A stretch of DNA of 64,000 nt from Thermoplasmata archaeon (lineage in GTDB: Archaea > Thermoplasmatota > Thermoplasmata > Lutacidiplasmatales > UBA184): positions 9,828 through 73,827 of the forward strand of contig JAWOKS010000008.1 of the NCBI GenBank assembly GCA_033854115.1. Direction: 5' to 3'. The notes under the pieces were generated by a model, which was given only the letters and a program-made list of their open reading frames with translations, had not been told where the DNA came from and searched no databases. The first letter of the stretch is position 1, and every line of letters starts with the position of its first letter. Positions 3,365-36,343 of the stretch are shown here, piece after piece. The position numbers and the translations under genes are program-made.

Positions 3365-3447
3365 ACCGCTTCGAGCGGGAGAGCGTATTTAACGCGCGGC
3401 GCGAGGTCGGGGAACGCCTCGGCGCGACGACCCGCGGCGACGCCGTC

Positions 3448-5952: not shown

Positions 5953-6190
5953 TCAGGCGGGCCGCGGTAGATAAACCGACCGCCCCTCGCCGTGACGCGA
6001 CCGCCTTCGAACGTGGGCGCGCGCGTTCGACCGGTCGATCGTCGGGCCGGACCCCCGGGTCGCGACCGACCCCTCTCCCTCGGACCTCGCTCCTGCGTCG
6101 CCCTCCGGGGGGCCGGAGCGGAGCCCGCGGCGGACGGGGGACCGGCCGGCTTATCGCGGGCGGAACGGTGGGCGGCTCCCGGGGGTCCGC

Positions 6191-7120
6191 GTGATCGACC
6201 TCGAGGAGCTCACCAAACGGTTTGGCGACGTGGTCGCGGTCGACGGCCTCACGCTCCACGTGAACGAGGGGGAGATCTTTGGCTTCCTCGGACCCAACGG
6301 CGCGGGCAAGACGACCACCGTACGGATGCTCACGGGTCTCATCTCGAAGACGAGCGGCGAGGCCCGCGTGGGGGGCTTCGAGATCGGCCGGGAGGAGGAC
6401 CGGATGAAGATCCGGGGGATGGTCGGCCTGCTGCCGGAGAACGTCGGCCTCATCGAGGAGCTGAGCCCGGTGCGCAACCTCGACTTCTACGGCCGGCTCT
6501 ACGATTGCCCCGACGACCGACGGCGCGCGAACATCGAGCGGCTGCTCACGATGCTCGACCTCTGGGACCAGCGCGACCGGCCCGTGGCGACGTTCTCGAA
6601 GGGGATGAAGCAGAAGGTCGCGGTCGCGCGCGCGCTCGTCCACGATCCCCGCGTGCTGTTCCTCGACGAGCCGACGGCCAACCTCGACCCTGAGGCGACC
6701 CGGACCGTGCGCGACGTCATCCTCCAGCTGAAGCGCGAGGACCGGACGATCGTCCTCACCACCCACAACCTGTACGAGGCGCAGCGCATCTGCGACCGGG
6801 TGGCGATCGTGAAATCGAAGCTCGTGACGGTCGGCTCGCCGGACGAGCTCCGCTCACGGTTCCCTTCGGTCCGCACGGTCCTCCGGCTTGAGCGCGTGAC
6901 CGAGCCGGTCCTGGCGGCCGTGCGCGCGAGGATCGGGACCCGCTCCATCGTCGCCGAGGGCAACAGCCTGATCGTCGGGGTGTCCGACCCGGCACGGGAG
7001 AACCCGGACCTGGTCGAGGCCGTGGTCGCGGCGGGGGGCCGGGTCCAGCAGGTGACGGAGCTCGAGCCCTCGCTCGAGGACGCCTACCTGAGCCTCGTCC
7101 ACCAGGGCGAAGGGGGGTAG
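6191..7120 (+). CDS. ABC transporter ATP-binding protein (ABC-2 type)
   Basis: Walker A GPNGAGKTTT, signature FSKGMKQKV, Walker B LFLDEPT. GTG start. Stop lies 1 nt before the permease gene start. Confidence 0.9.
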   Translation: MIDLEELTKRFGDVVAVDGLTLHVNEGEIFGFLGPNGAGKTTTVRMLTGLISKTSGEARVGGFEIGREEDRMKIRGMVGLLPENVGLIEELSPVRNLDFYGRLYDCPDDRRRANIERLLTMLDLWDQRDRPVATFSKGMKQKVAVARALVHDPRVLFLDEPTANLDPEATRTVRDVILQLKREDRTIVLTTHNLYEAQRICDRVAIVKSKLVTVGSPDELRSRFPSVRTVLRLERVTEPVLAAVRARIGTRSIVAEGNSLIVGVSDPARENPDLVEAVVAAGGRVQQVTELEPSLEDAYLSLVHQGEGG

Positions 7121-7121
7121 C

Positions 7122-7859
7122 ATGAGGTTCGCCAAGGTCTGGGTCGTCGCCCGCAAGGACCTCGCGGTCTTCCGTCAGAAGAAGAGCATCCTCTACACGG
7201 TCGCCGCCGCGCCACTCCTCATCGGCATCGGCCTCCCGATGGTGCTCCGGTTCGCCGGCGCGAGGAGCGGGGGCATCCCCCCGGTGGCCCTCCCCCCGCT
7301 CCTCGACTCGTTCGCCTTCTTCTTCGTGATCTGGGTCGTGACGCTGCCCGCGGCGATCGCCTCCTACTCCCTCGTCGGAGAGAAGGTGGAGCGGAGCCTC
7401 GAGCCGCTGCTCGCGACCCCCACGACCACGGGGGAGATCCTGATGGGGAAGAGCGTCGCCGCGTTCTTTCCGCCGATCGTCTCGGTCTATCTCGGCCAGA
7501 TCGTCTTCATGGTGCTCTCCGACGCGTTCACCGTCGGGAGCCTCGGCTACCTCTACTATCCCAACTGGACGATGGCCGTCGTGCTCTTCGCGGTGACCCC
7601 CCTCGCGTGCCTGCTCGGCGTGGAGAGCAGCGTCTTCATCTCGTCCCGCGTCGCCGACCTCCGCGTGGCGCAGCAGCTCTCCGGTCTCCTCGTGCTTCCG
7701 TTCGCGGCCCTCTACGTGGCCGGGGAGATCGGGGCGGTCCCGCTGCACGCGACGAACCTCCTCGTCATCGCGGGCGCCCTCGCGATCATCGATGTGCTGC
7801 TCTTCTTCGTCACCCGCTCGGTCTTCCGTCGCGAGGAGATCCTGACCCGGTGGAAGTGA
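7122..7859 (+). CDS. ABC-2 family transporter permease
   Basis: 245-aa polytopic hydrophobic protein, about 6 TM by eye. It immediately follows the ATPase gene. Confidence 0.75.
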   Translation: MRFAKVWVVARKDLAVFRQKKSILYTVAAAPLLIGIGLPMVLRFAGARSGGIPPVALPPLLDSFAFFFVIWVVTLPAAIASYSLVGEKVERSLEPLLATPTTTGEILMGKSVAAFFPPIVSVYLGQIVFMVLSDAFTVGSLGYLYYPNWTMAVVLFAVTPLACLLGVESSVFISSRVADLRVAQQLSGLLVLPFAALYVAGEIGAVPLHATNLLVIAGALAIIDVLLFFVTRSVFRREEILTRWK

Positions 7860-7926
7860 CGCCGTCGAGGAGCCCGAGGAGGCGCCCGGACCGTGAGGGC
7901 CCGCTGACCCCGCGGCCGGAGCGGCC

Positions 7927-10604: not shown

Positions 10605-11128
10605 GACCGGTCGGGAACGAACCAGACGTCCGTGACCCGGAAGCTCGGTCGCTCGGCGAACCGGGCGACGACGGGCATCCCCACGTAGATCTCCGACTCG
10701 GTGCAGTCCTTCAGGCGGACGAGGAGAAGGCTCCCGGCCCCGTCGAACTCGACCAGTGCGAGGTTGTACGGGGTCTCGGCGAGGAACGCCTCGCTGCCGA
10801 ACCGGCAGGTCGTCCAGGAATGGACCCGGCCCTTCGCCGGGAGCTCGGTCCACTCGGTCGGGCGGCCGCAGACCATGCAGTGCGACCGCGGGGTCGCGTA
10901 GCGGAAGCCGCAGCGCGCCCCGGTGCACTTCGAGCCGAGGAGCTTCCCTTCCGCGAGCCCGAGGAAGAACGGGGAATCCTCGGCGTAGCTGTGGATGTAC
11001 TCGATCACGTACGGGTCGCGGATGACGAGGCTCTCCTCCCCCTCCCGGTCGCGGAAGATCGCGGAGCCCGTGCGCTGGAGCTCCGCCTGCACGTCGCGGA
11101 ACTTGTCGAAGGTGCTCGGGCGCGCCAT
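10601..11128 (-). CDS. DUF35 family Zn-ribbon/OB-fold protein (thiolase-associated)
   Basis: The ATG at 11128 inside track ORF 10601..11695 gives MARPSTFDKF.... It has a rubredoxin-like ribbon (CTGARCGFRY...HCMVCGRP) followed by an OB-fold tail. The ATGA overlap with the upstream thiolase-like gene suggests translational coupling. Confidence 0.85.
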   Translation of the reverse strand: MARPSTFDKFRDVQAELQRTGSAIFRDREGEESLVIRDPYVIEYIHSYAEDSPFFLGLAEGKLLGSKCTGARCGFRYATPRSHCMVCGRPTEWTELPAKGRVHSWTTCRFGSEAFLAETPYNLALVEFDGAGSLLLVRLKDCTESEIYVGMPVVARFAERPSFRVTDVWFVPDRS

Positions 11129-12555
11129 CAGCGGAACCCCCGCTCGAGGATCGAGACGGTCACCGACGAGCCGGTCCCCGCGTGGCTGTGGATCGCGCCG
11201 CGCCGCGGCGACGGGACCTGGAGCGCCGCGTCCCCGAAGTGCTTGCGGATCGTCCCCTGGAGCTGCCAGAAGGCGAAGGCGGCCTGCATGAGACCGGTCG
11301 CCCCGACCGGGTGGCCACACGCGATGAGGCCGCCCGAGGGGTTCACCGGGATCTTGCCGGCCGCGGGCACGTCGAGCCCGTAGTCGATCCCCTTGAGGAA
11401 CGGCGCGCCCGAGAGGGTGAAGTCGTACCCCTCGCCGTAGCGGCAGAGCCCGAGGTCCTCGTAGGTCTGGATCTCGCTCGACGCGTAGGCGTCGTGGAGC
11501 TCGACGAAGTCGAGCTCGCGGATCGGGTCGGTGAGGCCGGCCATGCGGTACGCCTCGAGGCCGGCGGAGCGGCCCGCGCGGAAGGAGTGGACGCCCGGGT
11601 ACTCGAGCCCCCGGTAGTCGGCGGCCTTCTCGTGGGGCATCAGCGGGACCTCGCCGAACGGCCGGTCGGCGAGCCGCATCGTATCGGTCCCGCACCCGAC
11701 CCCGGTGACGCGGACCGGCTTGTCGGTGAACTCACGCGCCCGCCGCTCGTCGCAGAGGATCGCGACCGCGGCGCCGTCGGACATCGTGCATATCTGCTCG
11801 CGCGTGAGCGGGTAGGAGATCATCTCGGAGGCGAGGACGTCCTCGACGGTGAGCCGCTTCGGGTACTGGGCGTAGGGGTTGTGGAGCGCGTTGGTGTGGT
11901 TCTTCACCGAGACCCAGCTCATCACCCGCTGACCTTCCGCGATCGCGAGCCGCTGCGCCTCCCGCTCGTCCTTCACGTTCGCGAACTTGCCCCGGCGAAG
12001 GTACTCGTAGATGTGCCGGACGACCATGAGCGCGTAGTAGCCGGTGTAGAACCCCCCAAGGGGGAAGTCGAAGTTCGTGTCGGAGGCGAGCGCGATGAAC
12101 TCGTTGCCCTTCCACGTCGCGACCCGGCTCATCGTCTCGTAACCGGCGGCCAGGCAGACGTCCATCCGCCCGCTCGCGACCGCCTCGTACGCGGCCTGGA
12201 AGCACTCGCCCCCGGTCGCCCCGCCCCACTCGATGCGGACCGAGCCTTTCGGGTTGAGGCCGAGGTAGTCCTGGACCATGCTCGCGGCCTTCAACTGGCG
12301 CGAGAAGTGGTCGGAGAAGTAGGAGATCCGCGAGCCGTCGATCCGGTCCTTGGTGAGGTTCGGGATCCCGCGGAGCGCGTCGTCGTACGCCCGCTTGACC
12401 ATCAGGCGGAAGTCCATCGCGGGGTGCGCCTTCGCGAACTTCGTGACGCCGGCCGTCACCACGTAGACGCGGCGTCCCGGCAGGGAGGACGGACGCGAGG
12501 AGGCGCGGGTCCGGCGCACGGGGCGGCGCTTCGGGCGGGGCGAACGTGCGGGCAT
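11128..12555 (-). CDS. Thiolase-fold (SCP-x-type) protein lacking both catalytic cysteines
   Basis: VYVVTAGVTKF... has thiolase architecture and keeps NPSGGLIACGHPVGATG. The nucleophile position reads RIEWGGATGG (the in-window paralog has RVENACASGG), and HDCF is replaced by HDAY. The first ~35 aa are Arg-rich; an alternative GTG start lies at 12519. Confidence 0.8.
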   Translation of the reverse strand: MPARSPRPKRRPVRRTRASSRPSSLPGRRVYVVTAGVTKFAKAHPAMDFRLMVKRAYDDALRGIPNLTKDRIDGSRISYFSDHFSRQLKAASMVQDYLGLNPKGSVRIEWGGATGGECFQAAYEAVASGRMDVCLAAGYETMSRVATWKGNEFIALASDTNFDFPLGGFYTGYYALMVVRHIYEYLRRGKFANVKDEREAQRLAIAEGQRVMSWVSVKNHTNALHNPYAQYPKRLTVEDVLASEMISYPLTREQICTMSDGAAVAILCDERRAREFTDKPVRVTGVGCGTDTMRLADRPFGEVPLMPHEKAADYRGLEYPGVHSFRAGRSAGLEAYRMAGLTDPIRELDFVELHDAYASSEIQTYEDLGLCRYGEGYDFTLSGAPFLKGIDYGLDVPAAGKIPVNPSGGLIACGHPVGATGLMQAAFAFWQLQGTIRKHFGDAALQVPSPRRGAIHSHAGTGSSVTVSILERGFR

Positions 12556-12658
12556 AGGTTCGAACCTCGCGCGGCCAGCCGGGCCCGGTTCTTAACGTGC
12601 GCTCGGGGCGAGCGCGCTCGGGGGCGACGGTTTTCCCTCCGCGGCCCTAGCGCGACCG

Positions 12659-13681
12659 ATGGCGCCCGAGGACCCGAAGCGAGATCTCGTCTCGATCGCC
12701 GACGTCGCCGACGCGCTCGGGGGGCTGCTCGACCGCGCGGCCCGCCTGAAGGCCGAACGGGCCCGACGGACGGTGCGCCCGAGCCTCGCCGGCCGGACGC
12801 TCGCCCTGATCTTCGAGAAGCCCTCGACCCGCACCCGGACCTCGTTCGAGGTGGCGATCCACGACCTCGGGGGGCACGCCCTCTATCTCAACGCGAACGA
12901 CCTCCAGCTCGGCCGCGGCGAGACGATCGGCGATACCGCGCGCGTCCTCTCGCGCTACGTCGACGCCATCACCTACCGCGCGTATCGCCACGAGAACGTC
13001 CTCGAGCTCGCGCGCGGGGCGACCGTGCCGGTGATCAATGCGCTGGACGACCGGGAGCATCCGTGCCAGATCGTCGCGGACCTCCTCACGATGCGGGAGC
13101 GCTGGCCGGACGGCTTCCGCGGGCACCGCCTCGCGTGGATCGGGGACGGCAACAACGTCCTCCACTCGCTCCTGCTCGGCGCGGCCGCCGTCGGCCTCGA
13201 CCTCACGGCCGCGACCCCCGAGGCCTACCGCCCCGAGGCCGACGTGGTCCGGGCGGCCCGCGCCCTCGCCGACCGCTCGGGCGCGTCCCTGACGTTCACG
13301 TCGTCCCCGGCCGAGGCCGCGAAAGGGGCCGACGCCCTCTACACGGACGTCTGGGTCTCGATGGGCGACGAGGCGGAGCGGGAGGCGCGTGAGCGCGCGT
13401 TCCGGAGCTACCAGATCAACGCGGAGCTCCTCGGGCGGGCCGCGCCCGGGGCGTTCGTCCTCCACGATCTCCCGGCCCATCGCGGCCAGGAGATCACCGA
13501 CGAAGTGCTGGATGGTCTCCGTTCCGCGGCGTGGGACCAGGCGGAGAACCGCCTGCATGCCCAGAAGGCGATCCTCGAGCATCTCCTCCTCGGGGAGGAG
13601 CCGCGCCCGGCGCGGGTCCACGCGGCGCCCCCGAGGACGGCGGGGCGGACGCGCCGCCCGGCGCACGGCCGGGATTCGTAG
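12659..13681 (+). CDS. argF: Ornithine carbamoyltransferase
   Basis: Motifs FEKPSTRTRTSFE, DDREHPCQIVADL, DVWVSMG and HDLPAHRGQE. There is a ~30-aa Arg/Pro-rich C-terminal tail before the first stop. Confidence 0.9.
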   Translation: MAPEDPKRDLVSIADVADALGGLLDRAARLKAERARRTVRPSLAGRTLALIFEKPSTRTRTSFEVAIHDLGGHALYLNANDLQLGRGETIGDTARVLSRYVDAITYRAYRHENVLELARGATVPVINALDDREHPCQIVADLLTMRERWPDGFRGHRLAWIGDGNNVLHSLLLGAAAVGLDLTAATPEAYRPEADVVRAARALADRSGASLTFTSSPAEAAKGADALYTDVWVSMGDEAEREARERAFRSYQINAELLGRAAPGAFVLHDLPAHRGQEITDEVLDGLRSAAWDQAENRLHAQKAILEHLLLGEEPRPARVHAAPPRTAGRTRRPAHGRDS

Positions 13682-30458: not shown

Positions 30459-32096
30459 ATGCCCACTCTCCGTTCGATCGCCGACCTCGCGGCCGATCTC
30501 GGCCTCGGGGCCGACGAGGTCTATCCCGCCGGTGTGGGGGTCGGGAAGGTCTCGGTCGCGGCGGTCACCGCGCGGGCCCATCGCCGCCGGGGGAAGCTCG
30601 TCCTCGTCACGGCGATGACCCCGACGCGCCACGGGGAGGGCAAGACCGTCACCACGATCGCGCTCGCCGACGCGCTGGCCCGTCGTGGCGGGAACGCGGT
30701 CGCGTGCCTAAGGCAGCCGTCGCTCGGTCCGGTCTTCGGGGTGAAGGGTGGGGCGACCGGAGGGGGCCGGTCGACCGTCGAGCCCTCCTCCGAGATCAAC
30801 TTCGGCTTCACCGGCGACATTCACGCGGTCGGAGCGGCCCACAACCTCCTCGCCGCGCTCGTCGACAACCACATCTTCCACGGGAACCCCCTCGGACTCG
30901 ACCCGCTCCGGATCCTCTGGAACCGCTCGATGGACATGGAGGACCGCGCCCTGCGCCACATCTTGGTCGGGCAGGGCGTCCTGCACCAGGTCGTCCACCC
31001 GTCGTCGTTCGCGATCACGGCGGCCTCCGAGGTGATGGCGATCCTCGCGCTCGCCCAGGACTACCCGGACCTCAAGACGCGGCTCGAGCGGATCCTCGTC
31101 GGCTTCTCCCTCGACGACCTCCCCGTGCGGGCGCAGGACCTTCACGCGGGCGGGGCGATGGCCGCCCTCCTCCGCCACGCGCTCGAGCCGAACCTCGTCC
31201 AGACGAGCGAGGGGACGCCCGTGCTCGTCCACACCGGACCGTTCGGCAATCTCGCGCACGGCACGTGCAGTCGCCTCGCGATCGAGCTCGCGCTCGCCTC
31301 GAGCGACTACGCGGTCGTCGAAGCGGGGTTCGCGACCGAGCTCGGGGCCGAGAAGTTCGTCGACATCGTCACCCCCGCGATCGGGGCGGACGTGGATGCC
31401 GCGGTCCTCGTCGTGACCCAGCGGGGCCTGCGCTTCCAGGGCGGGGCGAGCGACGAGGAGGCGACCCGGCCGGCCCGGGCGGCCCTCGAGCGCGGGCTCG
31501 CGAACCTCGACCAGCACCTCGAGAACCTCGGCGCGCTCGGGATCCCCGCGACGGTGGCGCTGAACCACTTCCCCGGCGACTCCGTCGAGGAGGGCGCGCT
31601 CGTCCGGGACTTCTGCCGGGTGAAAGGCATCCACGTGATCGACTCGTTCGGGTTCGAGCGCGGAGGCGAGGGCAACCTCGAGCTCGCGCGCTCGGTGGAG
31701 GACGTCGCGTCGCTCGGCCGGCGCAGCCGTCCGCTCTACCCGGCGGGCACGGCCCTCCTCGGCCAGGTCGAGACGATCGCGACGCGGCTCTACGGGGCCG
31801 ACGGCGTCGTCGAGGCTCCCGAGGCTGCCGAGGAGCGACGGAGGCTCGAGCGGATCGGCGAGGCCACCGGGCCCGTCTGCATGGCGAAGACCCCGCTCTC
31901 GCTCTCGGACGACCCGCACCGGCTCAACCGCCCGCGGGACTACCGCGTGACGGTGCACCACTATCTCCGGTCGGCCGGCGCGGGCTTCACCGTGGCCCTC
32001 CTCGGCACGATCGAAACGATGCCGGGCCTGCCGACCCGTCCGGCCGCGGAGGCGATCGACCTCGCGCCGGACGGTTCGATCCTCGGCAGGCACTGA
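30459..32096 (+). CDS. fhs: Formate--tetrahydrofolate ligase
   Basis: TAMTPTRHGEGKTVTTIALADAL P-loop and full-length similarity pattern. The track start at 30423 is a GTG; the ATG at 30459 (MPTLRSIADLAADLGL) matches the usual N-terminus. Confidence 0.93.
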   Translation: MPTLRSIADLAADLGLGADEVYPAGVGVGKVSVAAVTARAHRRRGKLVLVTAMTPTRHGEGKTVTTIALADALARRGGNAVACLRQPSLGPVFGVKGGATGGGRSTVEPSSEINFGFTGDIHAVGAAHNLLAALVDNHIFHGNPLGLDPLRILWNRSMDMEDRALRHILVGQGVLHQVVHPSSFAITAASEVMAILALAQDYPDLKTRLERILVGFSLDDLPVRAQDLHAGGAMAALLRHALEPNLVQTSEGTPVLVHTGPFGNLAHGTCSRLAIELALASSDYAVVEAGFATELGAEKFVDIVTPAIGADVDAAVLVVTQRGLRFQGGASDEEATRPARAALERGLANLDQHLENLGALGIPATVALNHFPGDSVEEGALVRDFCRVKGIHVIDSFGFERGGEGNLELARSVEDVASLGRRSRPLYPAGTALLGQVETIATRLYGADGVVEAPEAAEERRRLERIGEATGPVCMAKTPLSLSDDPHRLNRPRDYRVTVHHYLRSAGAGFTVALLGTIETMPGLPTRPAAEAIDLAPDGSILGRH

Positions 32097-32267
32097 GCGA
32101 CCGCGACGCGGGTCGCTCGCCCGAGTCGGTCGATTCTTGGGGACCGGCCGCTCCACGGCGAGAGCTTCGCGACCTGGGCTCCCGGCGACGCCGGCGGATG
32201 GTTCTGCTGCAATTCGTGTGGTAAACCCTCTCGGCTTGTGGACGTTTCGCGTCGAGAGGTCTCGTTC

Positions 32268-32471
32268 CTAGGTGGCAGGTCGGCGCATCAGATACAGCCC
32301 CCATGCCCCCAACGAGGCGAGGCACACTCCTTGGACCGCGAGAAGGAAGGACGACGGCCAGGGACGGAGAAGTGCTTGCCGCGTACTCACCGCGCCTCCG
32401 ACTATCCCTACGGCGAACACGACCAACATGGCGCATCTCGGCAAGTGAAAGCCGGAAGGCGGCTTTGTCAT
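32268..32471 (-). CDS. Small 2-TM membrane protein (hypothetical) in a low-GC segment
   Basis: 67-aa ORF with two hydrophobic helices. It lies just left of the solo IS end and may be the remnant of another element. Confidence 0.3.
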   Translation of the reverse strand: MTKPPSGFHLPRCAMLVVFAVGIVGGAVSTRQALLRPWPSSFLLAVQGVCLASLGAWGLYLMRRPAT

Positions 32472-32530
32472 GGTTCAGGCGGAGAGCACCCCCACCCGAC
32501 CTGAGACGGGAGGTCCGGTCCGCCACGGAC

Positions 32531-32552
32531 CACCCGCTTAGGTAACAGAACC
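32531..32552. repeat. Solo IS end (third copy of the IS6-like terminal repeat, right-end orientation)
   Basis: CACCCGCTTAGGTAACAGAACC here compares with the right end of the element, CACCCGATGGGGTAACAGAACC (34837-34858). The CACCCG and GGTAACAGAACC blocks are identical. Confidence 0.6.
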
Positions 32553-32561
32553 TCCTCCGGG
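32553..32561. repeat. Left flanking direct repeat TCCTCCGGG (candidate target-site duplication)
   Basis: Identical 9-mer at 34859-34867, immediately outside the right terminus. Confidence 0.55.
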
Positions 32562-32628
32562 GGTTCTGTTACTTCTCGGGTCATGAACTCTCTCGGTTTC
32601 TCTCTCGTTTCAACTCGGGTGACGCGCC

Positions 32629-33786
32629 TCAGTTCGGGATGACCTCAATCTCGGGGTAGCCGGGCTTCGGCTGTGGCGCGGCCCGCTTGATGAGTTCGGC
32701 CCACCGGAACCCTCCGAGCGGGGCGAAACCCGCGGCGACCCCCGGGGTTGTCCCGAGGGACTGATGGTCGCGCACGAGGTTGTAGTGCGCCCGGAAGCCC
32801 TCCATGAGTGCCCCGGTTCCCCGGTCCGTGTCGAACCCGCGCATGACCTTGATGCGCTCCTTCTCGGTCCCGTGGAGCCTCTCGACAAGGTTGTTCGACT
32901 CCTTGGCCCGGATGCTCGGGACCCGGACGTGAGGACTCCGGCTCCCGCGACCGAGTTCCTTGACGACCGCCTTCGGGTAGGCCGTCATCCCATCCGTGAA
33001 CACCTCGTTCGGCCGGTCGGGAGTGACCGCCTTGGCCTTGTGCAGAGGGGCCTGAGTGTCGCTCAGTCCCCGGTTCTCGCTGACGTGCGTGGCAAGGAGG
33101 AACCGTGTGTCCCGGTCGAGGACGTTCCAGAGATACCGGGGTGAGCCGTCCACGTTTACCACCGTTTCGTCCACGTGCCACCGCTCTCCGGTCCGGGCCC
33201 CCTGACGGTCCATCCTCTCCGCGGCCAGCTTCCCGAAGTGGGTGACCCACCGATAGACCGTGACGTGGCTGACGTTGAGGCCCTGAGCCTGCCGGAAATG
33301 CTCCGCGACCTTGCGGACGGACATGCCCCGGAAGTAGAGGTCGAGCGCGAGGGCGATCTTGTCGGGGTCAGCCCGGCGGCGCTGGAAGCCGTCCCGGCCC
33401 GTGAATCGGTAACCGCACCCGCGGCATAGGAAACGGGCGAGTAGTCCGCTCTTGTTGTGCCTCTTACCGTTCCCGACTACGTTACCGGACCCGCACCGAG
33501 AGCAGGTCTCGGACACCGAGGGTAGAGGCTCGGCCCCAACCTTGAACCCTTCCCGGAACCGGACCGCAAAGACGTGGATGCATGAGATCCCGGTCTCCCG
33601 GAAGAAGGGACAGTCGCACGACCACCGGTCCCTCATGACGGTGACCTTGTACTCCACCCCAAGCCGGCTCTGAGAGCGCACGACGTACTCCGTGGGGGAG
33701 ACCGTCTGAATCTGGTCGCCGCGAGCTACGATAGCGAGAGCCGGGGTTCGCATGTCGGACCACACCTCCGTCATCGGCAGGGACAT
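32629..33786 (-). CDS. IS6-family DDE transposase with N-terminal SWIM zinc finger and Zn ribbon
   Basis: SWIM motif WSCDCPFFRETGISCIHVFAV. Ribbon CSRCGSG...CRGCGYRF. HTH MSVRKVAEHF...VSHVTVYRWV. DDE core WHVDETVVNVDG...YLWNVLDRDTRF...TDGMTAYPKAV...NNLVERLHGTEKERIKVMRGF. The first 107 codons of track ORF 32629..34107 overlap neighbouring genes and were dropped. The ATG at 33786 or at 33774 (MTEVW) is the likely start; 33774 is about 26 nt from the centre of the ATATAT element at 33797-33802. Confidence 0.85.
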   Translation of the reverse strand: MSLPMTEVWSDMRTPALAIVARGDQIQTVSPTEYVVRSQSRLGVEYKVTVMRDRWSCDCPFFRETGISCIHVFAVRFREGFKVGAEPLPSVSETCSRCGSGNVVGNGKRHNKSGLLARFLCRGCGYRFTGRDGFQRRRADPDKIALALDLYFRGMSVRKVAEHFRQAQGLNVSHVTVYRWVTHFGKLAAERMDRQGARTGERWHVDETVVNVDGSPRYLWNVLDRDTRFLLATHVSENRGLSDTQAPLHKAKAVTPDRPNEVFTDGMTAYPKAVVKELGRGSRSPHVRVPSIRAKESNNLVERLHGTEKERIKVMRGFDTDRGTGALMEGFRAHYNLVRDHQSLGTTPGVAAGFAPLGGFRWAELIKRAAPQPKPGYPEIEVIPN

Positions 33787-33792
33787 ATCAAC

Positions 33793-33878
33793 GTGGATAT
33801 ATGAAGGTGGCGTATCCACTTGGATTACAGGGGTGGACCGGAGGCCGTATATATGTGGATAAACTTGTCCACTTGGAT
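33793..33878. promoter_or_regulatory. Divergent intra-IS control region with two TATA-like elements and repeated motifs
   Basis: GTGGATA at 33793-33799 and 33855-33861, each fused to an alternating AT run (33797-33802 and 33848-33854). TCCACTTGGAT at 33815-33825 and 33868-33878. GTGGATA-N13-TATCCAC forms an inverted repeat. Confidence 0.45.
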
Positions 33879-34044
33879 GCCGAAGTGGAAGAAGGACGCC
33901 AAGGAGTTCACCGTGAGCGTCAACTACCACGAGACCCGAGGGACCCTGACGACTATCCCCAAGCCAGTGGTCGATCATCTTTCCCGACCCGAGAAGATCA
34001 CGTTCGTGATTCGGAAGGAGAAGGTCGAGGTTCGGGCAGCGTGA
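33877..34044 (+). CDS. Small AbrB/SpoVT-like DNA-binding protein (55 aa), divergent from the transposase
   Basis: The ATG at 33877 inside track ORF 33820..34044 gives MPKWKKDAKEFTVSVNYHETRGTLTTIPKPVVDHLSRPEKITFVIRKEKVEVRAA, with the swapped-hairpin-like pattern tIPK.v...l....kitF.i. The start is ~26 nt from the centre of the TATATAT element at 33848-33854, which suggests a leaderless transcript. Confidence 0.45.
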   Translation: MPKWKKDAKEFTVSVNYHETRGTLTTIPKPVVDHLSRPEKITFVIRKEKVEVRAA

Positions 34045-34807
34045 CCCGTGGGCCAAAGTCGATACCCGAAGGATCTTCCTGAATCCACTCCGCCACGCGG
34101 TTTTCAATGAGCTCCGGGTCCATGAGGTCCCAGAGTTCGGAAACCTTCTCTCCCCAGACCGACCTCTGTAGTTCTCTGCCGCTGGGTTTCAGGGCAAAGT
34201 AGGTCGGGACGACGGCTGCCGCCAGGACCGCGGCCAGAACGAGGAGCAACATGGAGGAGTCGTTCTGGTCGTGAAATCCTATGGTGAGCAAGGAAGGTAT
34301 GACCGAGAAGAACCCAAACACCAACAGCAGCAGATCGGCTTTGAAGCCGGTTCTCCTTGCCACACTCGAGTTTACGATGAGCCACTCAATCCGCTGAATC
34401 TTCTCTCGGCAGAGATGCTCCTCGTTCTGGTCTCCCTTGTTGGTCGGCCCCGACGCAAGCACGCGGGCCCTGTCGTAGAGGTGATAGCGCAGGGAGAGCA
34501 GAACCGACCTTAGTGACGTACCATCGGCCCGGATAGATGTGAGCTTCTTGTGGGGAAGCCACAGGTAGTTGTTGCACACGACGTAAGCGAAGGTCCAACC
34601 CATCGCCACGGCGACAACATAGGTTATTGTCAGATACGGAATCACGAGAGTGACCTCCGTGAAGTAGAGAAGGGCCGCTCCACCTGCCGTGATGAGGGCG
34701 GCCACGATGGCGGGACCGAACTTGCGCGAGGTCGGCATCCAAAGGTCGGCGTCCTCCGGAATGGGAACTCCGGGAAGTCGGTATGACGGAGGGACGTGAC
34801 CCGACAT
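33998..34807 (-). CDS. 4-TM membrane protein of unknown function (IS passenger gene)
   Basis: 269-aa ORF with low-GC codon usage. It has two N-terminal and two central hydrophobic helices separated by a soluble loop. No family recognised. Its 3' end overlaps the AbrB-like gene by 47 nt, convergently. Confidence 0.6.
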   Translation of the reverse strand: MSGHVPPSYRLPGVPIPEDADLWMPTSRKFGPAIVAALITAGGAALLYFTEVTLVIPYLTITYVVAVAMGWTFAYVVCNNYLWLPHKKLTSIRADGTSLRSVLLSLRYHLYDRARVLASGPTNKGDQNEEHLCREKIQRIEWLIVNSSVARRTGFKADLLLLVFGFFSVIPSLLTIGFHDQNDSSMLLLVLAAVLAAAVVPTYFALKPSGRELQRSVWGEKVSELWDLMDPELIENRVAEWIQEDPSGIDFGPRVTLPEPRPSPSESRT

Positions 34808-34858
34808 GCAACGGCCAGTGTTTCCCCGACGCTAATCACCCGATGGGGTAACAGAACC

Positions 34859-34867
34859 TCCTCCGGG
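34859..34867. repeat. Right flanking direct repeat TCCTCCGGG
   Basis: Identical to 32553-32561. With the adjacent terminus it forms a 21-bp direct repeat GGTAACAGAACCTCCTCCGGG (32541-32561 and 34847-34867). Confidence 0.55.
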
Positions 34868-34874
34868 AGGAGTC

Positions 34875-34931
34875 TATATACCTGAAACACGATATGTCAA
34901 TCGTCAGACAAAGAAGCACATCTTGTCTGAC
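34875..34931 (+). promoter_or_regulatory. Promoter (TATATA) and 9-bp inverted-repeat operator candidate upstream of the RHH gene
   Basis: TATATA at 34875-34880. GTCAGACAA (34903-34911), an 11-nt spacer, then TTGTCTGAC (34923-34931), ending 5 nt before the ATG at 34937. Confidence 0.45.
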
Positions 34932-34936
34932 AAGCC

Positions 34937-35302
34937 ATGGTCGACACCTCGGAGCGGGTGACCGTACGGATCCCCCAGGAACTGCTCGAGAAGCTGAAGC
35001 AGATCCAGGAGGCGAAGGGCACCGCCACCATCTCCGACACCATCCGTGAGGGGCTCGAGCAGTACATCGAGCTCCACCTTCCTCCCCACCACATCCGCAA
35101 GGTGGTCGTCGAGCTCTCCCGTCGCGACAACAGCCGGCTCGAGGAGTTCGTTCGGGAGGGCAACTCCGTGAGCGTCGACGACGCGGTCCGCTCGGCGGTG
35201 CGGGAGTACATCCGCAGTCGCATCGACCAGCTCGCGCCCCCCTCGAGGACCCACCGACGGGAGGGCGAAGCCGTCACCGCCGAGGACGCGCCCCCTCCGT
35301 AG
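34937..35302 (+). CDS. Tandem ribbon-helix-helix (CopG/Arc/MetJ-type) DNA-binding protein, CdrS-like context
   Basis: Two RHH units in one 121-aa chain: RVTVRIPQELLEKLKQIQEAKGTATISDTIREGLEQYIE and KVVVELSRRDNSRLEEFVREGNSVSVDDAVRSAVREYIRSR. Its stop lies 15 nt before the ftsZ-like ATG, which has an AGGAGG Shine-Dalgarno element. Confidence 0.75.
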   Translation: MVDTSERVTVRIPQELLEKLKQIQEAKGTATISDTIREGLEQYIELHLPPHHIRKVVVELSRRDNSRLEEFVREGNSVSVDDAVRSAVREYIRSRIDQLAPPSRTHRREGEAVTAEDAPPP

Positions 35303-35317
35303 GAGGACGAAAGGGCG

Positions 35318-36343
35318 ATGCTCGAGCGGTCGGCGGCGGACGCCCTCGATGCCTTCGCGCTCTCTCCGTCGATCGCCGTGGTCGGCCTGGGGGGGGCGGG
35401 GAGCGAGGCCGTCGAGGACCTCGTCACCCTCGGGCTCCCGGGCGCGCGGGCGATCGCGGTCAACACCGACGCGACGCACCTGCGCCGGGTCGGCGTGGAG
35501 GAGCGGATCCTCCTCGGGCGGCGACAGTTCGGCGGCCGCGGGAGCGGCGGGGACCGCGACGCGGTCCTCCTGGCCGCGGAGGAGAGCCGGGAGGAGGTCG
35601 TCCGCCGCCTCGGCCAGTTCGAGCTCGTCTTCCTGCTCGCCGGGCTGGGGGGCGGCACCGGGAGCGCGCTGCTGCCGTTCCTCTCCCGGGAGCTGCGGGA
35701 GACGCCGGCGCTCCCGATCCCCGTCGTCTTCCTTCCGTTCCGCATCGAGCTCGAGGCGAACTCGGGGCTCCGGGCGAACGTCGAGCGGGCGGTCGCCGAG
35801 CTCGAGGAGCTCGGGGGCCTCCTCCTCCCCCTCGCCAACGAGAAGCTCCGCCGGTTCGACACGCTCGCCGTCCACCGCGTCTTCCGGATCCGGAACGCCT
35901 ACCTCCACGGGCTGGTCGCGAGCTTGGTCGACATGGTCGATCACCCGAGCCAGCTCAACGTCGACCTCGCGAGCTTGAAGAGCCACCTGAGCCAGTCGGG
36001 GCTCTCGACCCTCGTCATCGGCGAGCACCACATCAGCGAGCCCGACCGGCTCGTCCGCCAGGCCCTCGCCGATTCGCTCCTCGACTTTCAGCTGCCGGAC
36101 CACCCGACCGCCCTCGTCCATCTCGAGGGAGGCACGAACCTGACGCTCCGCACCCTCGACGAAGTGCTGCGCGAGGTCCGTGCGAGCTTCCGCGACCCCG
36201 AGCGGCTCGTCTTCGGGACCCGCATCCGCCCCGAGCCCCGCGAGGTCGTGCGGCTCACGGCCGTGCTCGGAGGCCTCCGGCCCCGCACCGTCCGGGAGGC
36301 GATCCGGCCCGCGGCCGCGCGCCCCGCCCTACCCGCGCGCTGA
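35318..36343 (+). CDS. Divergent FtsZ/tubulin-superfamily GTPase
   Basis: IAVVGLGGAGSEAV (T1), NTDATHL, GGRGSGGDRD, LLAGLGGGTGSALLP (tubulin signature with the last G changed to A), NVDLASLKS (T7 loop). 341 aa, with no long C-terminal linker. Confidence 0.8.
   Translation: MLERSAADALDAFALSPSIAVVGLGGAGSEAVEDLVTLGLPGARAIAVNTDATHLRRVGVEERILLGRRQFGGRGSGGDRDAVLLAAEESREEVVRRLGQFELVFLLAGLGGGTGSALLPFLSRELRETPALPIPVVFLPFRIELEANSGLRANVERAVAELEELGGLLLPLANEKLRRFDTLAVHRVFRIRNAYLHGLVASLVDMVDHPSQLNVDLASLKSHLSQSGLSTLVIGEHHISEPDRLVRQALADSLLDFQLPDHPTALVHLEGGTNLTLRTLDEVLREVRASFRDPERLVFGTRIRPEPREVVRLTAVLGGLRPRTVREAIRPAAARPALPAR

Follow-up and report, generated by a model that had tools for sequence, protein, structure and literature searches.

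Structure of the element and its flanks

The window (the whole 64-kb stretch of DNA that was analysed) contains a mobile element of 2,297 bp at positions 32562-34858, coordinates that we checked in the window sequence. The element carries three ORFs, including the only transposase gene in the window. Its GC content is 56-68% against approximately 73% for the host, so that its composition is foreign. The termini are 11-bp perfect inverted repeats, GGTTCTGTTAC at 32562-32572 and its exact complement GTAACAGAACC at 34848-34858, and each is bordered on the outside by the 9-bp sequence TCCTCCGGG. The right end reads CACCCG-ATGG-GGTAACAGAACC (34837-34858), and a third end, CACCCG-CTTA-GGTAACAGAACC (32531-32552), adjoins the left 9-bp copy. 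A repeat search recovered a direct repeat bracketing the insert (42 nt at 81% identity, 21 nt of these perfect) and a palindrome with 14-nt arms at 32542-32572. The original prediction had described the perfect termini, the identical flanks and the third end, all of which were confirmed to the base, and had also pointed to the direct repeat and the palindrome that our search recovered. The locations of these features are summarized in Table 1.

Six occurrences of the GGTAACAGAACC 12-mer, with at most two mismatches allowed, were counted in the window, where 1.1 were expected; no shuffled sequence out of 100 gave as many. A profile HMM trained on end sequences from 11 related elements, with the window element left out, detected exactly the three ends described above and one internal subterminal repeat over the 64-kb window at E values up to approximately 1. 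Ends in the related loci were located by a motif regular expression and later by this ends HMM; a generic inverted-repeat finder missed known ends in those loci, as its output was swamped by GC-rich chance pairs.

Table 1. Features of the element, the neighbouring relic and the host promoter edge (window positions).
Feature	Position	Strand	Description
Tentative decayed left end of relic X	32200..32221	+	GGTTCTGCTGCAATTCGTGTGG; resembles family ends such as GGAACTGTTGCAAATCGGGTGG by eye
Subterminal repeat of relic end	32489..32508	-	Reverse complement CGTCTCAGGTCGGGTGGGGG; offset ~41-60 nt inward, as in family ends
Terminal repeat of relic (third, solo) end	32527..32552	-	Outer terminus 32552; ends HMM E=0.035
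Left target-site duplication copy	32553..32561	.	TCCTCCGGG, 9 bp; single copy in empty allele
Left terminal inverted repeat (IRL)	32562..32585	+	Transposase 3' side; GGTTCTGTTACTTCTCGGGTCATG; sequence check, repeat search, ends HMM
Left-end subterminal repeat	32603..32629	+	Core GTTTCAACTCGGGTGACG at 32607-32624; ends HMM match, profile positions 7-25
Transposase gene	32629..33774	-	381 aa from MTEVWSD; longest annotated version starts at 33786
Putative divergent promoter/operator region between transposase gene and orf55	33775..33876	.	AT-rich TATA-like boxes under palindromes
orf55, divergent from transposase gene	33877..34044	+	55 aa; conserved; predicted AbrB/MazE-like DNA-binding fold
Passenger region	33998..34807	-	269-aa ORFan, membrane-protein-like; ORF list
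Right-end subterminal repeat	34796..34813	-	Reverse complement GTTGCATGTCGGGTCACG; position and sequence in end alignment
Right terminal inverted repeat (IRR)	34832..34858	-	Outer terminus 34858; ends HMM E=0.022
Right target-site duplication copy	34859..34867	.	TCCTCCGGG, 9 bp; repeat search and empty allele
Host promoter edge	34868..34881	+	4-bp spacer AGGA, then TATA-like box GTCTATATAC of RHH gene (putative promoter); ATG at 34937

The transposase and its group

The transposase comprises a SWIM zinc finger, a CxxC...CxxC zinc ribbon, an HTH and a DDE domain, in that order; the Pfam matches to the SWIM and zinc-ribbon domains were weak. The protein matched the NCBIfam model NF033587 (transpos_IS6) with 152.1 bits (cutoff, 125) over profile positions 1-202 of 202 and Pfam DDE_Tnp_IS240 at 1.2e-22 (81 bits; cutoff, 27), bearing out its earlier assignment as IS6-like. 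Thirteen residues were invariant in 27 relatives (C57, C59, C69, H71, C95, C98, C121, C124, D206, D265, E302, K309 and R311), and the last five of these form an IS6-type DDE triad followed by K/R. The start-codon context ATGACGGCGATGTGG was also conserved in the relatives.

Identity to the annotated IS6 transposases of a plasmid collection was 25-31%, the best of these matches being a Clostridium perfringens IS6 transposase (31%, 2e-31). The group to which the transposase belongs numbers more than 500 proteins, almost all from Thermoplasmata metagenome bins. Curated archaeal IS6 elements are 696-853 bp long, encode transposases of 211-237 aa and mostly generate 8-bp duplications, ISH15 and ISPfu5 being listed as exceptions with 9-bp duplications (PMC6807381); the proposal of a new archaeal IS6 subgroup fits this picture. 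For the archaeal and 'long' IS6-type elements no experimental record exists, and it is disputed where they belong in the family (PMC6807381). We conclude that the element is an autonomous transposon whose group, undescribed and deep-branching within the IS6 superfamily, occurs mostly in uncultured Thermoplasmata.

The divergent gene orf55 and the passenger region

Two palindromes, ATCCACTTGGAT (33814-33825) and GTCCACTTGGAT (33867-33878), lie over the TATA-like boxes between the transposase gene and orf55. The same divergent layout was found in 12 relatives, in which ATC-N6-GAT palindromes co-vary from element to element, and these palindromes may serve as operators. orf55 adjoins the transposase gene in 15 distinct related loci at 34-77% identity by tblastn (50-77% in 13 of the 15; L001/L018 and L021/L047 were each counted once), and most of the sampled relatives carry it. 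Its 231 homologues share the invariant pattern PKWK..FTV.V..RG..P.P.

An AlphaFold model of the orf55 product had a pLDDT of 82. The top ten, and 10 of the 12 best, PDB matches to this model were MazE, AbrB, VapB or AbrB-like C68 (TM 0.42-0.67), with SpoVT at rank 23, all at Foldseek E values of at least 1.6; the leading MazE, AbrB-N, VapB and SpoVT structures matched at TM 0.54-0.67. Weak Pfam matches to MazE/PrlF (E 0.014-0.1) were found in only 2-3 of 39 members. Acting at the ATC-N6-GAT palindromes, the putatively AbrB-like product probably keeps the divergent internal promoters repressed.

The passenger ORF lies in the part of the element with the lowest GC content (56-59%). It had no match in Pfam, NCBIfam or PADLOC and no homologue other than itself among 5.8 billion proteins, and it was absent from all related elements.

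Empty and occupied alleles

A contig of Logan assembly SRR21720905 (locus L049) aligned to window positions 31304-32561 and 34837-35703 at 99.5-99.8% identity and lacked the element. It reads ...CACCCGCTTAGGTAACAGAACC TCCTCCGGG AGGAATCTATATACC and contains one copy of TCCTCCGGG, which identifies the 9-bp flanks as a true target duplication; the empty site foreseen in the original prediction, ...GGTAACAGAACC TCCTCCGGG AGGA..., is thus present in a nearly identical strain. Occupied alleles were found in three other assemblies. The left junction of relic, duplication and IRL was recovered from two 99.9% identical assemblies, NCBI GCA_037917035.1 and Logan SRR16529295, and is therefore not an artefact of one assembly. 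Logan assemblies use k=31. An assembly artefact was ruled out by the independence of the assemblies and because assembling the empty-site contig takes 31-mers that reach into unique sequence beyond either side of the 21-bp repeat. Copies elsewhere have ends of the same kind, and the repeat does not occur without an element, as the original prediction required of a mobile element. These alleles show that the element is mobile and recently active.

The empty allele could equally have arisen by deletion between the 21-bp perfect direct repeats instead of being ancestral. Such a deletion leaves intact a relic that is not the element's own end, since the two differ (CTTA versus ATGG) and their interiors are unrelated. 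Simple insertion with a duplication, together with an empty allele, fits either cut-and-paste or copy-in with subsequent resolution.

The third end is a relic of an older element

The third end matches the right end of the element at 18 of 22 positions, with equal spacing to CGGGTG, and was unchanged in the empty allele. Because it was already present in a strain without the element, we regard it as the terminus of an older, decayed element, here called X. Its subterminal repeat lies at the offset typical of family ends, which shows the solo end to be a genuine two-part end, at least 62 bp long, and not a chance 22-mer. The earlier reading of the third end as a remnant was thus upheld.

The left end of X was placed only tentatively, at 32200, in which case X would span 32200-32552 (353 bp). 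The GC content falls from approximately 73% to approximately 62% from near this position, the distance from the FTHFS stop codon to 32200 (103 bp) may be set against the 98 bp between the FTHFS stop codon and the element in the syntenic locus L003, and a comparable MITE-like relic of 347 bp occurs in L039. The candidate left end was significant neither by the ends HMM nor against shuffled sequences. BLASTN and TBLASTX searches with the 465 bp to the left of the element, run against every locus and the remainder of the window, returned no real homology. A third copy of the duplication on the far side, as expected of intact older insertions at the same site, was seen at none of the relics. A look-up with the FTHFS protein found a single contig, which stops 16 bp short of the relic.

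Related elements and end-to-end junctions

We found 13 complete elements of the group, including that of the window, which ranged from 1.9 to 5.9 kb and all had perfect 9-bp duplications. The minimal element measures approximately 1.9-2.1 kb; passenger DNA varies and includes restriction-modification genes in some relatives. The ends share the consensus GGWWCTGT, and two-part ends were recognized in L003, L017, L020, L021, L024, L033, L034, L038, L041 and L076. Many of the relatives' loci are orthologous sites in related bins, so that independent events are fewer than loci.

Unique tail-to-head junctions between ends numbered eight. The spacing was exactly 9 bp in all eight, with no other spacing between 0 and 47 bp, and the junction 9-mer was perfectly repeated at the far side of one element in seven; in the eighth, L020, 7 of the 9 positions matched. 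Both relative orientations occurred. Approximately one-third of all unique end instances sit in such 9-bp junctions.

Placement upstream of TATA-like boxes

On its other side, the element abuts a putative host promoter: it was inserted in the 9 bp that separate the X terminus from the promoter region of an RHH-ftsZ-paralogue operon, where we infer from position that the GTCTATATAC box is the promoter of the RHH gene. Of 12 duplication-bounded elements, 11 had an AT-rich box at +14 to +21, counted from the end of the element, whereas such boxes make up 2.2% of 8-mers in the background. The 13-bp offset from an AT-rich TATA-like box was found at no fewer than seven distinct host sites, including those of smc, ftsZ and the RHH-ftsZ-paralogue operon. 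Wherever a relic and a TATA-like box were both visible, the relic lay on the side away from the box. No AT-rich box was seen on the readable side or sides of L076, L066, L023 (at 1789) or L043.

The same positions were used repeatedly. Two relic-free elements, L003 and L009, occupy this position in front of the orthologous RHH gene, in the opposite orientation and with other duplications. Approximately 11 loci share one position upstream of smc and include both orientations. At the eight smc loci read on both sides, the duplication differed between genomes; it was perfect in L001/L018, L002, L007, L017, L026, L038 and L039 and matched at 8 of 9 positions in L034. One ancient, vertically inherited insertion at the smc and RHH sites was ruled out for the complete elements, because each genome has two identical 9-mers that differ from those of other genomes. 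For the ftsZ-adjacent clade, vertical inheritance is likely. The smc-promoter motif GGTTAAATATGGCGGACAGGGC was absent from the 64-kb window.

Target choice and alternative explanations

We favour, with a probability of roughly 0.7, the interpretation that the window element is a transposon of an undescribed IS6 group that inserted recently beside an older relic and that its target was chosen by two cues, a resident end and a fixed promoter offset. The transposase would bind the terminal and subterminal repeats and would make strand transfers staggered by 9 bp. Under one cue, the element would land at the outer edge of a family end already present, which gives end-9 bp-end junctions; under the other, it would land 13 bp (9 + 4) in front of a TATA-like box. 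Relic and box occur together in most loci, so that the two cues are confounded, and the case for targeting by an end alone comes mainly from L076. Re-use of the same 9 bp would stack new copies between older ones and the promoter, and the older copies would decay into relics.

A more specific form of this interpretation, which is possible but doubtful, is that the archaeal core-promoter complex (BRE/TATA DNA bent by TBP/TFB) acts as a landing pad, with the outer edges of resident ends as another, producing ordered arrays at the 13-bp offset. The link between TBP/TFB and insertion is speculation prompted by the fixed 13-bp offset to AT-rich boxes. The promoters named in this connection belong notably to genes for chromosome segregation and cell division, namely smc, ftsZ, a cdrS-ftsZ2-like operon and a PRC-barrel gene.

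Targeting by the promoter alone, in which a feature just upstream of the BRE/TATA is recognized, successive insertions hit the same 9 bp and the relic plays no part, seems unlikely. The AT-rich box enrichment is strong, and L003, L009, L024 and L010 have the same offset without a relic. In the empty allele, the relic itself is exactly 13 bp from the TATA-like box, so that the first insertion used the same position without a resident end. However, at L076 exactly 9 bp lie between element A and its neighbour B, which is apparently complete, and neither outer flank shows an AT-rich box; the ends at L020 and L009 are inserted beside or within other ends, away from a recognizable box. The proportion of ends in 9-bp junctions would also need very frequent re-use of single sites.

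We consider it very improbable that an IRR-9 bp-IRL circle, resembling a translocatable unit, recombined with the relic end and its flank, either by homologous recombination across the 21-31-bp repeat or by IS26-style conservative end exchange, in which case the 9-bp repeat would not be a duplication. The direct repeat that brackets the insert would suit such an event, as would the 30-bp perfect repeat at L007, and IS26 integrates conservatively beside a resident copy (PMC7986276). However, the 9-mer differs at every site and always equals the host sequence next to the promoter, so that the circle would have to come from the very site that it entered. Five complete elements (L003, L006, L009, L024 and L077) have clean 9-bp duplications without a relic, the relic in the window differs from IRR inside the repeat, and there is one transposase copy with no flanking pair of IS copies.

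Hardly credible is a remnant of a head-to-tail dimer with one copy deleted down to its terminal repeat: the order of end, duplication-length spacer and end is that of IS dimers (PMC9333248), and the abutting 347-bp neighbour at L039 derives from the same element (65 nt at 97% identity), but the inner sequence of the relic and its interior of approximately 350 bp share nothing with the element, the relic stands alone in the empty allele, and the abutting ends in L017, L026 and L076 are from clearly different elements.

Comparison with known systems

Among known systems, the element is close to the IS6/IS26 family (IS26, IS257, IS1216 and IS6100), with which it shares a DDE triad with K/R seven to nine residues after the E and ends that begin with GG, include CTGTT and carry a G at position 7. 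The end of IS26 reads GGCACTGTTGCAAA, and the ends of some relatives read GGAACTGTTGCAAA. The IS6 family also tends to sit beside resident copies. The differences are considerable: a transposase of 381 aa with SWIM and zinc-ribbon domains versus 213-254 aa, a duplication of 9 bp (here and in 12 other complete elements) versus 8 bp, and two-part ends of 24-60 bp versus 14 bp. Members of the family usually measure 0.7-0.9 kb (up to 1.8 kb in long clades) and carry a transposase gene only, whereas the window element has 2,297 bp and three ORFs, and its group has a second conserved gene and passengers and reaches 5.9 kb. The IS6/IS26 family moves only by replicative cointegrate formation (copy-in) and by a conservative reaction at a resident copy; abutment here comes with a full duplication, in contrast to conservative end exchange without one. 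The translocatable-unit-like structure that the original prediction offered as an alternative was not supported, as there is one transposase copy, no directly repeated flanking IS, and complete inverted ends with a duplication. The features of IS26-type pseudo-compound transposons and translocatable units were absent, and no further family end was found in the 64-kb window.

The long clostridial elements of the ISCpe7 group (clade VII of Harmer and Hall; clade h of Varani et al.) likewise have an N-terminal zinc-binding extension before the HTH-DDE core, and ISDsp3 carries a passenger gene, the only such IS6 element on record (PMC7986276). Unlike the elements described here, they are 1.2-1.8 kb long, have a single ORF (except ISDsp3) and make 8-bp duplications; a SWIM domain, a partner gene, a site preference and an archaeal host are not reported for them.

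The targeting resembles, by analogy, the dual target choice of IS30, which prefers two classes of target (hot spots and its own inverted repeats) and forms an end-spacer-end junction on insertion at a resident end. The spacer of the IS30 IR-IR junction is 2 bp, while that found here is 9 bp, equal to the duplication. The staggered attack of IS30 spans 2 bp and gives a 2-bp duplication (PMC9333248). The likeness is behavioural only: the IS30 transposase belongs to an unrelated family that moves by copy-out-paste-in through circles or dimers, whereas the present one is of the IS6 type, and IR targeting by IS30 gives only IRL-IRR junctions, whereas both relative orientations occur here and no circular form is known.

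The group offers a well-delimited example, clearly active and represented in natural populations by both occupied and empty alleles, that departs from the IS26 paradigm in its 9-bp duplication, two-part ends, small partner gene, passengers and precise, recurrent target choice. Insertion at a fixed offset by promoters and resident ends would account for the persistence of transposons in compact archaeal genomes without gene inactivation. It would also create ordered arrays and relic ends, and it would bring foreign regulatory DNA immediately in front of essential genes of cell division. This rule of target choice might also serve for site-directed insertion in archaea. A functional analogy exists with the Ty3/Ty1 and Tf1 retrotransposons, which insert at a fixed short distance upstream of core promoters, where a compact genome offers a 'safe haven'. 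For these eukaryotic retroelements the tethering factors have been identified by experiment, whereas a role of TBP/TFB here is conjecture. If landing at the core promoter were true, archaea would provide their first described example of a promoter-tethered DDE transposon, with safe-haven integration in a prokaryote to set beside that of Ty3/Ty1.

Structure of the insertion and its empty allele

A check of the sequence located the perfect termini, the identical 9-bp flanks and the solitary third end of the 2,297-bp element (32562-34858) just where the original prediction had placed them. Our repeat search of the window recovered a direct repeat of 42 nt, 21 nt of which are perfect, together with a palindrome at 32542-32572. 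The terminal 12-mer was over-represented in the window, with six matches at two mismatches or fewer against 1.1 expected, and none of 100 shuffles reached six. A profile HMM trained solely on the ends of other family members detected exactly the three termini and one subterminal repeat in the 64-kb window. The junction of third end, duplication and left terminal inverted repeat (IRL) was also present in two further assemblies, at 99.9% identity.

Positions of the main features (window coordinates unless a related locus is named; termini, flanks and third end confirmed by sequence check)
Feature	Position	Sequence or remark
IRL	32562-32572	GGTTCTGTTAC
Right terminus	34848-34858	exact complement of IRL GGTTCTGTTAC
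9-mer outside both termini	32553-32561 and 34859-34867	TCCTCCGGG
Third end	32531-32552	CACCCGCTTAGGTAACAGAACC; abuts left TCCTCCGGG
Subterminal repeat of third end	32489-32508	family-typical offset
Older element X, possible extent	32200-32552	353 bp
orf55	33877-34041	55 aa; divergent from transposase gene
RHH gene, then FtsZ paralogue	34937-36343	
Leader motif, window	34905-34935	
Leader motif, L003	7460-7480	
Leader motif, L009	~6800-6815	
Leader motif, L007	6800-6835	
Leader motif, L052	6660-6680	

An exact look-up of the RHH protein encoded next to the element led to a Logan contig from another sample (SRR21720905), which aligns to 31304-32561 and 34837-35703 of the window at 99.5-99.8% and reads ...CACCCGCTTAGGTAACAGAACC TCCTCCGGG AGGAATCTATATACC.... 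This is the empty site that the original prediction had anticipated: it lacks 2,306 bp, corresponding to the element and one 9-mer, and retains the third end. Because the empty allele carries a single 9-mer, the TCCTCCGGG flanks are a genuine target duplication, and because it keeps the third end, that end does not belong to the new insertion. The same empty sequence would also result from a deletion between the 21-bp perfect repeats. At the boundary between the 4-bp spacer and the TATA-like box, position 34872 differs from position 1263 of the empty contig (G/A), with AGGAG in the occupied alleles and AGGAA in the empty one. A Logan contig from SRR16529295 begins at 34873, exactly one base past this site, a start that hints at the coexistence of both alleles in that sample.

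The third end differs from the right end of the element itself (CTTA versus ATGG), has its own subterminal repeat and adjoins an interior unrelated to the element; we therefore regard it as the terminus of a different, decayed element, X. A degenerate end at 32200, where the drop in GC content begins, is a candidate for the left end of X. The distance from the FTHFS stop codon to this position is 103 bp, compared with 98 bp from the FTHFS stop codon to the element in the syntenic related locus L003. The left boundary at 32200 had no statistical support in the ends HMM or the shuffle test.

Gene content and family

The GC content falls from ~73% in the host to 56-68% between ~32200 and 35050. 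The large minus-strand ORF encodes the transposase, which matched Pfam DDE_Tnp_IS240 (1.2e-22) and the curated IS6 model of NCBI (152 bits; cutoff, 125), and matched SWIM and zinc-ribbon models weakly. In an alignment with 27 relatives, the SWIM ligands C57, C59, C69 and H71, the ribbon cysteines C95, C98, C121 and C124, and residues D206, D265, E302, K309 and R311 were invariant. Since the start context ATGACGGCGATGTGG is conserved, we placed the start at 33774, giving a protein of 381 aa. The remaining 0.8 kb is a passenger encoding a membrane-protein-like ORFan of 269 aa, for which the databases searched yielded neither a family match nor a homologue.

In 15 distinct related loci, tblastn found the small gene orf55 beside the transposase gene (34-77% identity, 50-77% in 13 of them). 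Its 231 database homologues share a strongly conserved core, MPKWK..FTVSV..RG..IPKP, and the best matches to its AlphaFold model (pLDDT 82) were MazE, AbrB-N, VapB and SpoVT (TM 0.54-0.67), with non-significant E-values. The ~100 bp between the two genes contain AT-rich boxes overlapped by ATC-N6-GAT palindromes, a layout common to the relatives, while the palindrome centres vary from element to element. A repressor and operator evolving together would produce such a pattern; we infer this function from the sequence. Annotated proteins of Nitrososphaerota (Nitrosotalea, Nitrosarchaeum and 'Thaumarchaeota') include three homologues of orf55 (P0197, P0206 and P0226; 56-60% identity), so the range of this partner gene, and perhaps that of the element family, may reach beyond Thermoplasmata.

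The transposase has more than 500 relatives, nearly all of the named ones from 'Thermoplasmata archaeon' bins, and we fetched ~75 related loci (labelled with the prefix L). Thirteen complete elements of 1,994 to 5,923 bp are bounded by perfect 9-bp duplications; the minimal form (~1.9-2.1 kb) consists of an end, orf55, the transposase gene and an end, and a variety of passengers occurs in the larger forms. Each end has two parts, a terminal GGWWCTGT-N6-9-CGGGWG and, ~39 nt inward, GTTCA-N-TCGGGWGG. In one locus (L006, 2271-2279), the duplication ATGACGGCG starts the longest ORF of an adjoining gene for an M24 peptidase (methionine-aminopeptidase-like); either the true start codon of this gene is located downstream of that position, or the gene is now transcribed from a promoter within the element end.

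The best annotated relatives in a plasmid collection (IS26, IS1216 and a C. perfringens IS6) share 25-31% identity with the transposase. IS6 elements generally make 8-bp duplications, measure 700-890 bp and include a single passenger-carrying member (PMC7986276); archaeal members measure 696-853 bp and encode 211-237-aa transposases, and zinc-finger members of the long type are recorded solely in Clostridia (PMC6807381). Judged by its transposase and end sequences, the element is an IS6-superfamily transposon; its duplication length, size and gene content fail the usual IS6 definition, and it should therefore not be filed as a standard member. Our full-text literature searches found no description of this group. 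The main proposal of the original prediction is supported, namely an atypical archaeal IS6 subgroup that carries cargo, makes 9-bp duplications and abuts a remnant end; its alternative of an IS26-style translocatable unit is ruled out by the single transposase gene and complete inverted ends.

End-to-end junctions

Across all loci, the ends HMM revealed eight distinct junctions at which two outward-facing termini face each other, all with a spacing of exactly 9 bp and none with any other spacing within 0-47 bp; L019 and L023 contain two more below the HMM threshold. The junction 9-mer is repeated perfectly at the far end of one element in seven of the eight (7 of 9 positions in L020), which identifies that element as the later insertion. 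Its neighbour is a bare relic in the window, L007, L017 and L026, a 347-bp MITE-like derivative in L039, and in L076 a second element, apparently complete, that has both an orf55 and a transposase gene of its own. Abutment of ends recurs across the family and is no accident.

The two L076 elements (3438-7892 and 10921-13452) lie head to head with the 9-bp spacing, and the flanks of the second are mismatched (TCAGCAGCC versus GCCAGCGCC). They are followed by a series of small ORFs and a Prim-Pol gene, so an integrated plasmid or virus may contain both elements. L009 (2484-2540 and 6693-6764) has an extra inner inverted-repeat pair and an inner right end at 6692 that lies 72 bp inside the outer right end, and L020 (1-60 and 2550-2620) carries the 9-mer again in inverted orientation, with a partial end after it; both sites have histories more complex than a single insertion.

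Offset from AT-rich boxes

One flank of 11 of the 12 duplication-bounded elements consists of the 9-mer, 4 bp and an AT-rich 8-mer (for example GGTTAAATAT, GTCTATATAC, TTTCATATAC, ATTTAAGAAT or CTTTTTATAT). Of all 8-mers in these loci, only 2.2% are that AT-rich. The box was found at at least seven host sites, counted as sites rather than loci: upstream of smc (~11 loci), upstream of the RHH-ftsZ-paralogue operon (window, L003 and L009), one each upstream of ftsZ, a PRC-barrel gene and dnaK, and two without an identified gene. From their position ~55-95 nt before start codons, we call the boxes TATA-like and the regions putative promoters. At the smc and RHH sites, the duplications are identical within a genome and different between genomes, and both orientations occur, which indicates repeated insertion at the same position rather than one inherited event. 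Wherever box and abutting end are both visible, the relic and the box lie on opposite sides of the element, as would be the case if every new copy inserted into the same 9 bp beside the promoter. The readable flanks at L076, L066, L043 and one L023 site contain no box, so the rule is a tendency.

Proposed mechanism

Established features are the DDE enzyme of IS6 type, the two-part ends, the 9-bp duplication and the presence/absence polymorphism between strains, as well as the precise adjoining of the element to both a pre-existing end and an AT-rich box. We propose that the transposase would bind the terminal and subterminal repeats and perform strand transfers staggered by 9 bp, guided by two cues, the outer edge of a family end already in place and a feature just upstream of BRE/TATA; older copies would later decay to relics, and orf55 probably autoregulates the divergent promoters. 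The sequence is compatible with either copy-in or cut-and-paste.

Targeting by the promoter alone is a plausible explanation, to which we assign a low probability; the two cues coincide in most loci. Insertions at a TATA-like box only (L003, L009, L024 and L010) and at an end only (L076) suggest a role for each cue. Recombination of a circle across the 21-31-bp repeat is an unlikely route of integration, as the 9-mer is always local host sequence and five complete elements carry duplications without a relic. A collapsed tandem dimer is contradicted in the window by the unrelated relic interior and the relic-only allele.

Host genes beside the insertion sites

The element lies directly upstream of the presumed promoter of the RHH-ftsZ-paralogue operon. 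This operon encodes an RHH protein with weak matches to the CdrS and aCcr1 models and an FtsZ paralogue (TIGR00065, 177 bits, below cutoff), an arrangement like the haloarchaeal cdrS-ftsZ2 operon (PMC7439475, PMC8406309). A similar leader motif follows the TATA-like boxes of this operon (CGTCAGACAAAG / CTTGTCTGACAAG), smc (CTGTCTGACAAAC / GCTGACAACCGTC) and ftsZ (CGTCCGACAAAC); these Thermoplasmata may use it as a common operator for a cell-division regulon.

Another clade, with transposases ~63% identical to that of the window (L004, L005, L028-L032 and L052-L065; e.g., L052 6581-6625), is always immediately upstream of ftsZ (Tubulin and FtsZ_C) in 46 contigs from many samples. The right end contains its stop codon, the flank GCTCTACGC-AAAC-GTTTAT is kept between genomes, methyltransferase, EcoRII-C and HTH genes lie upstream, and no left end was found within 5 kb; it looks like an old, possibly immobilised insertion. 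In L057 (1-1470), an IS200/IS605-type Y1 transposase gene and a Cas12f/TnpB-like gene lie beside the methyltransferase cargo, which suggests that mobile elements accumulate at this site.
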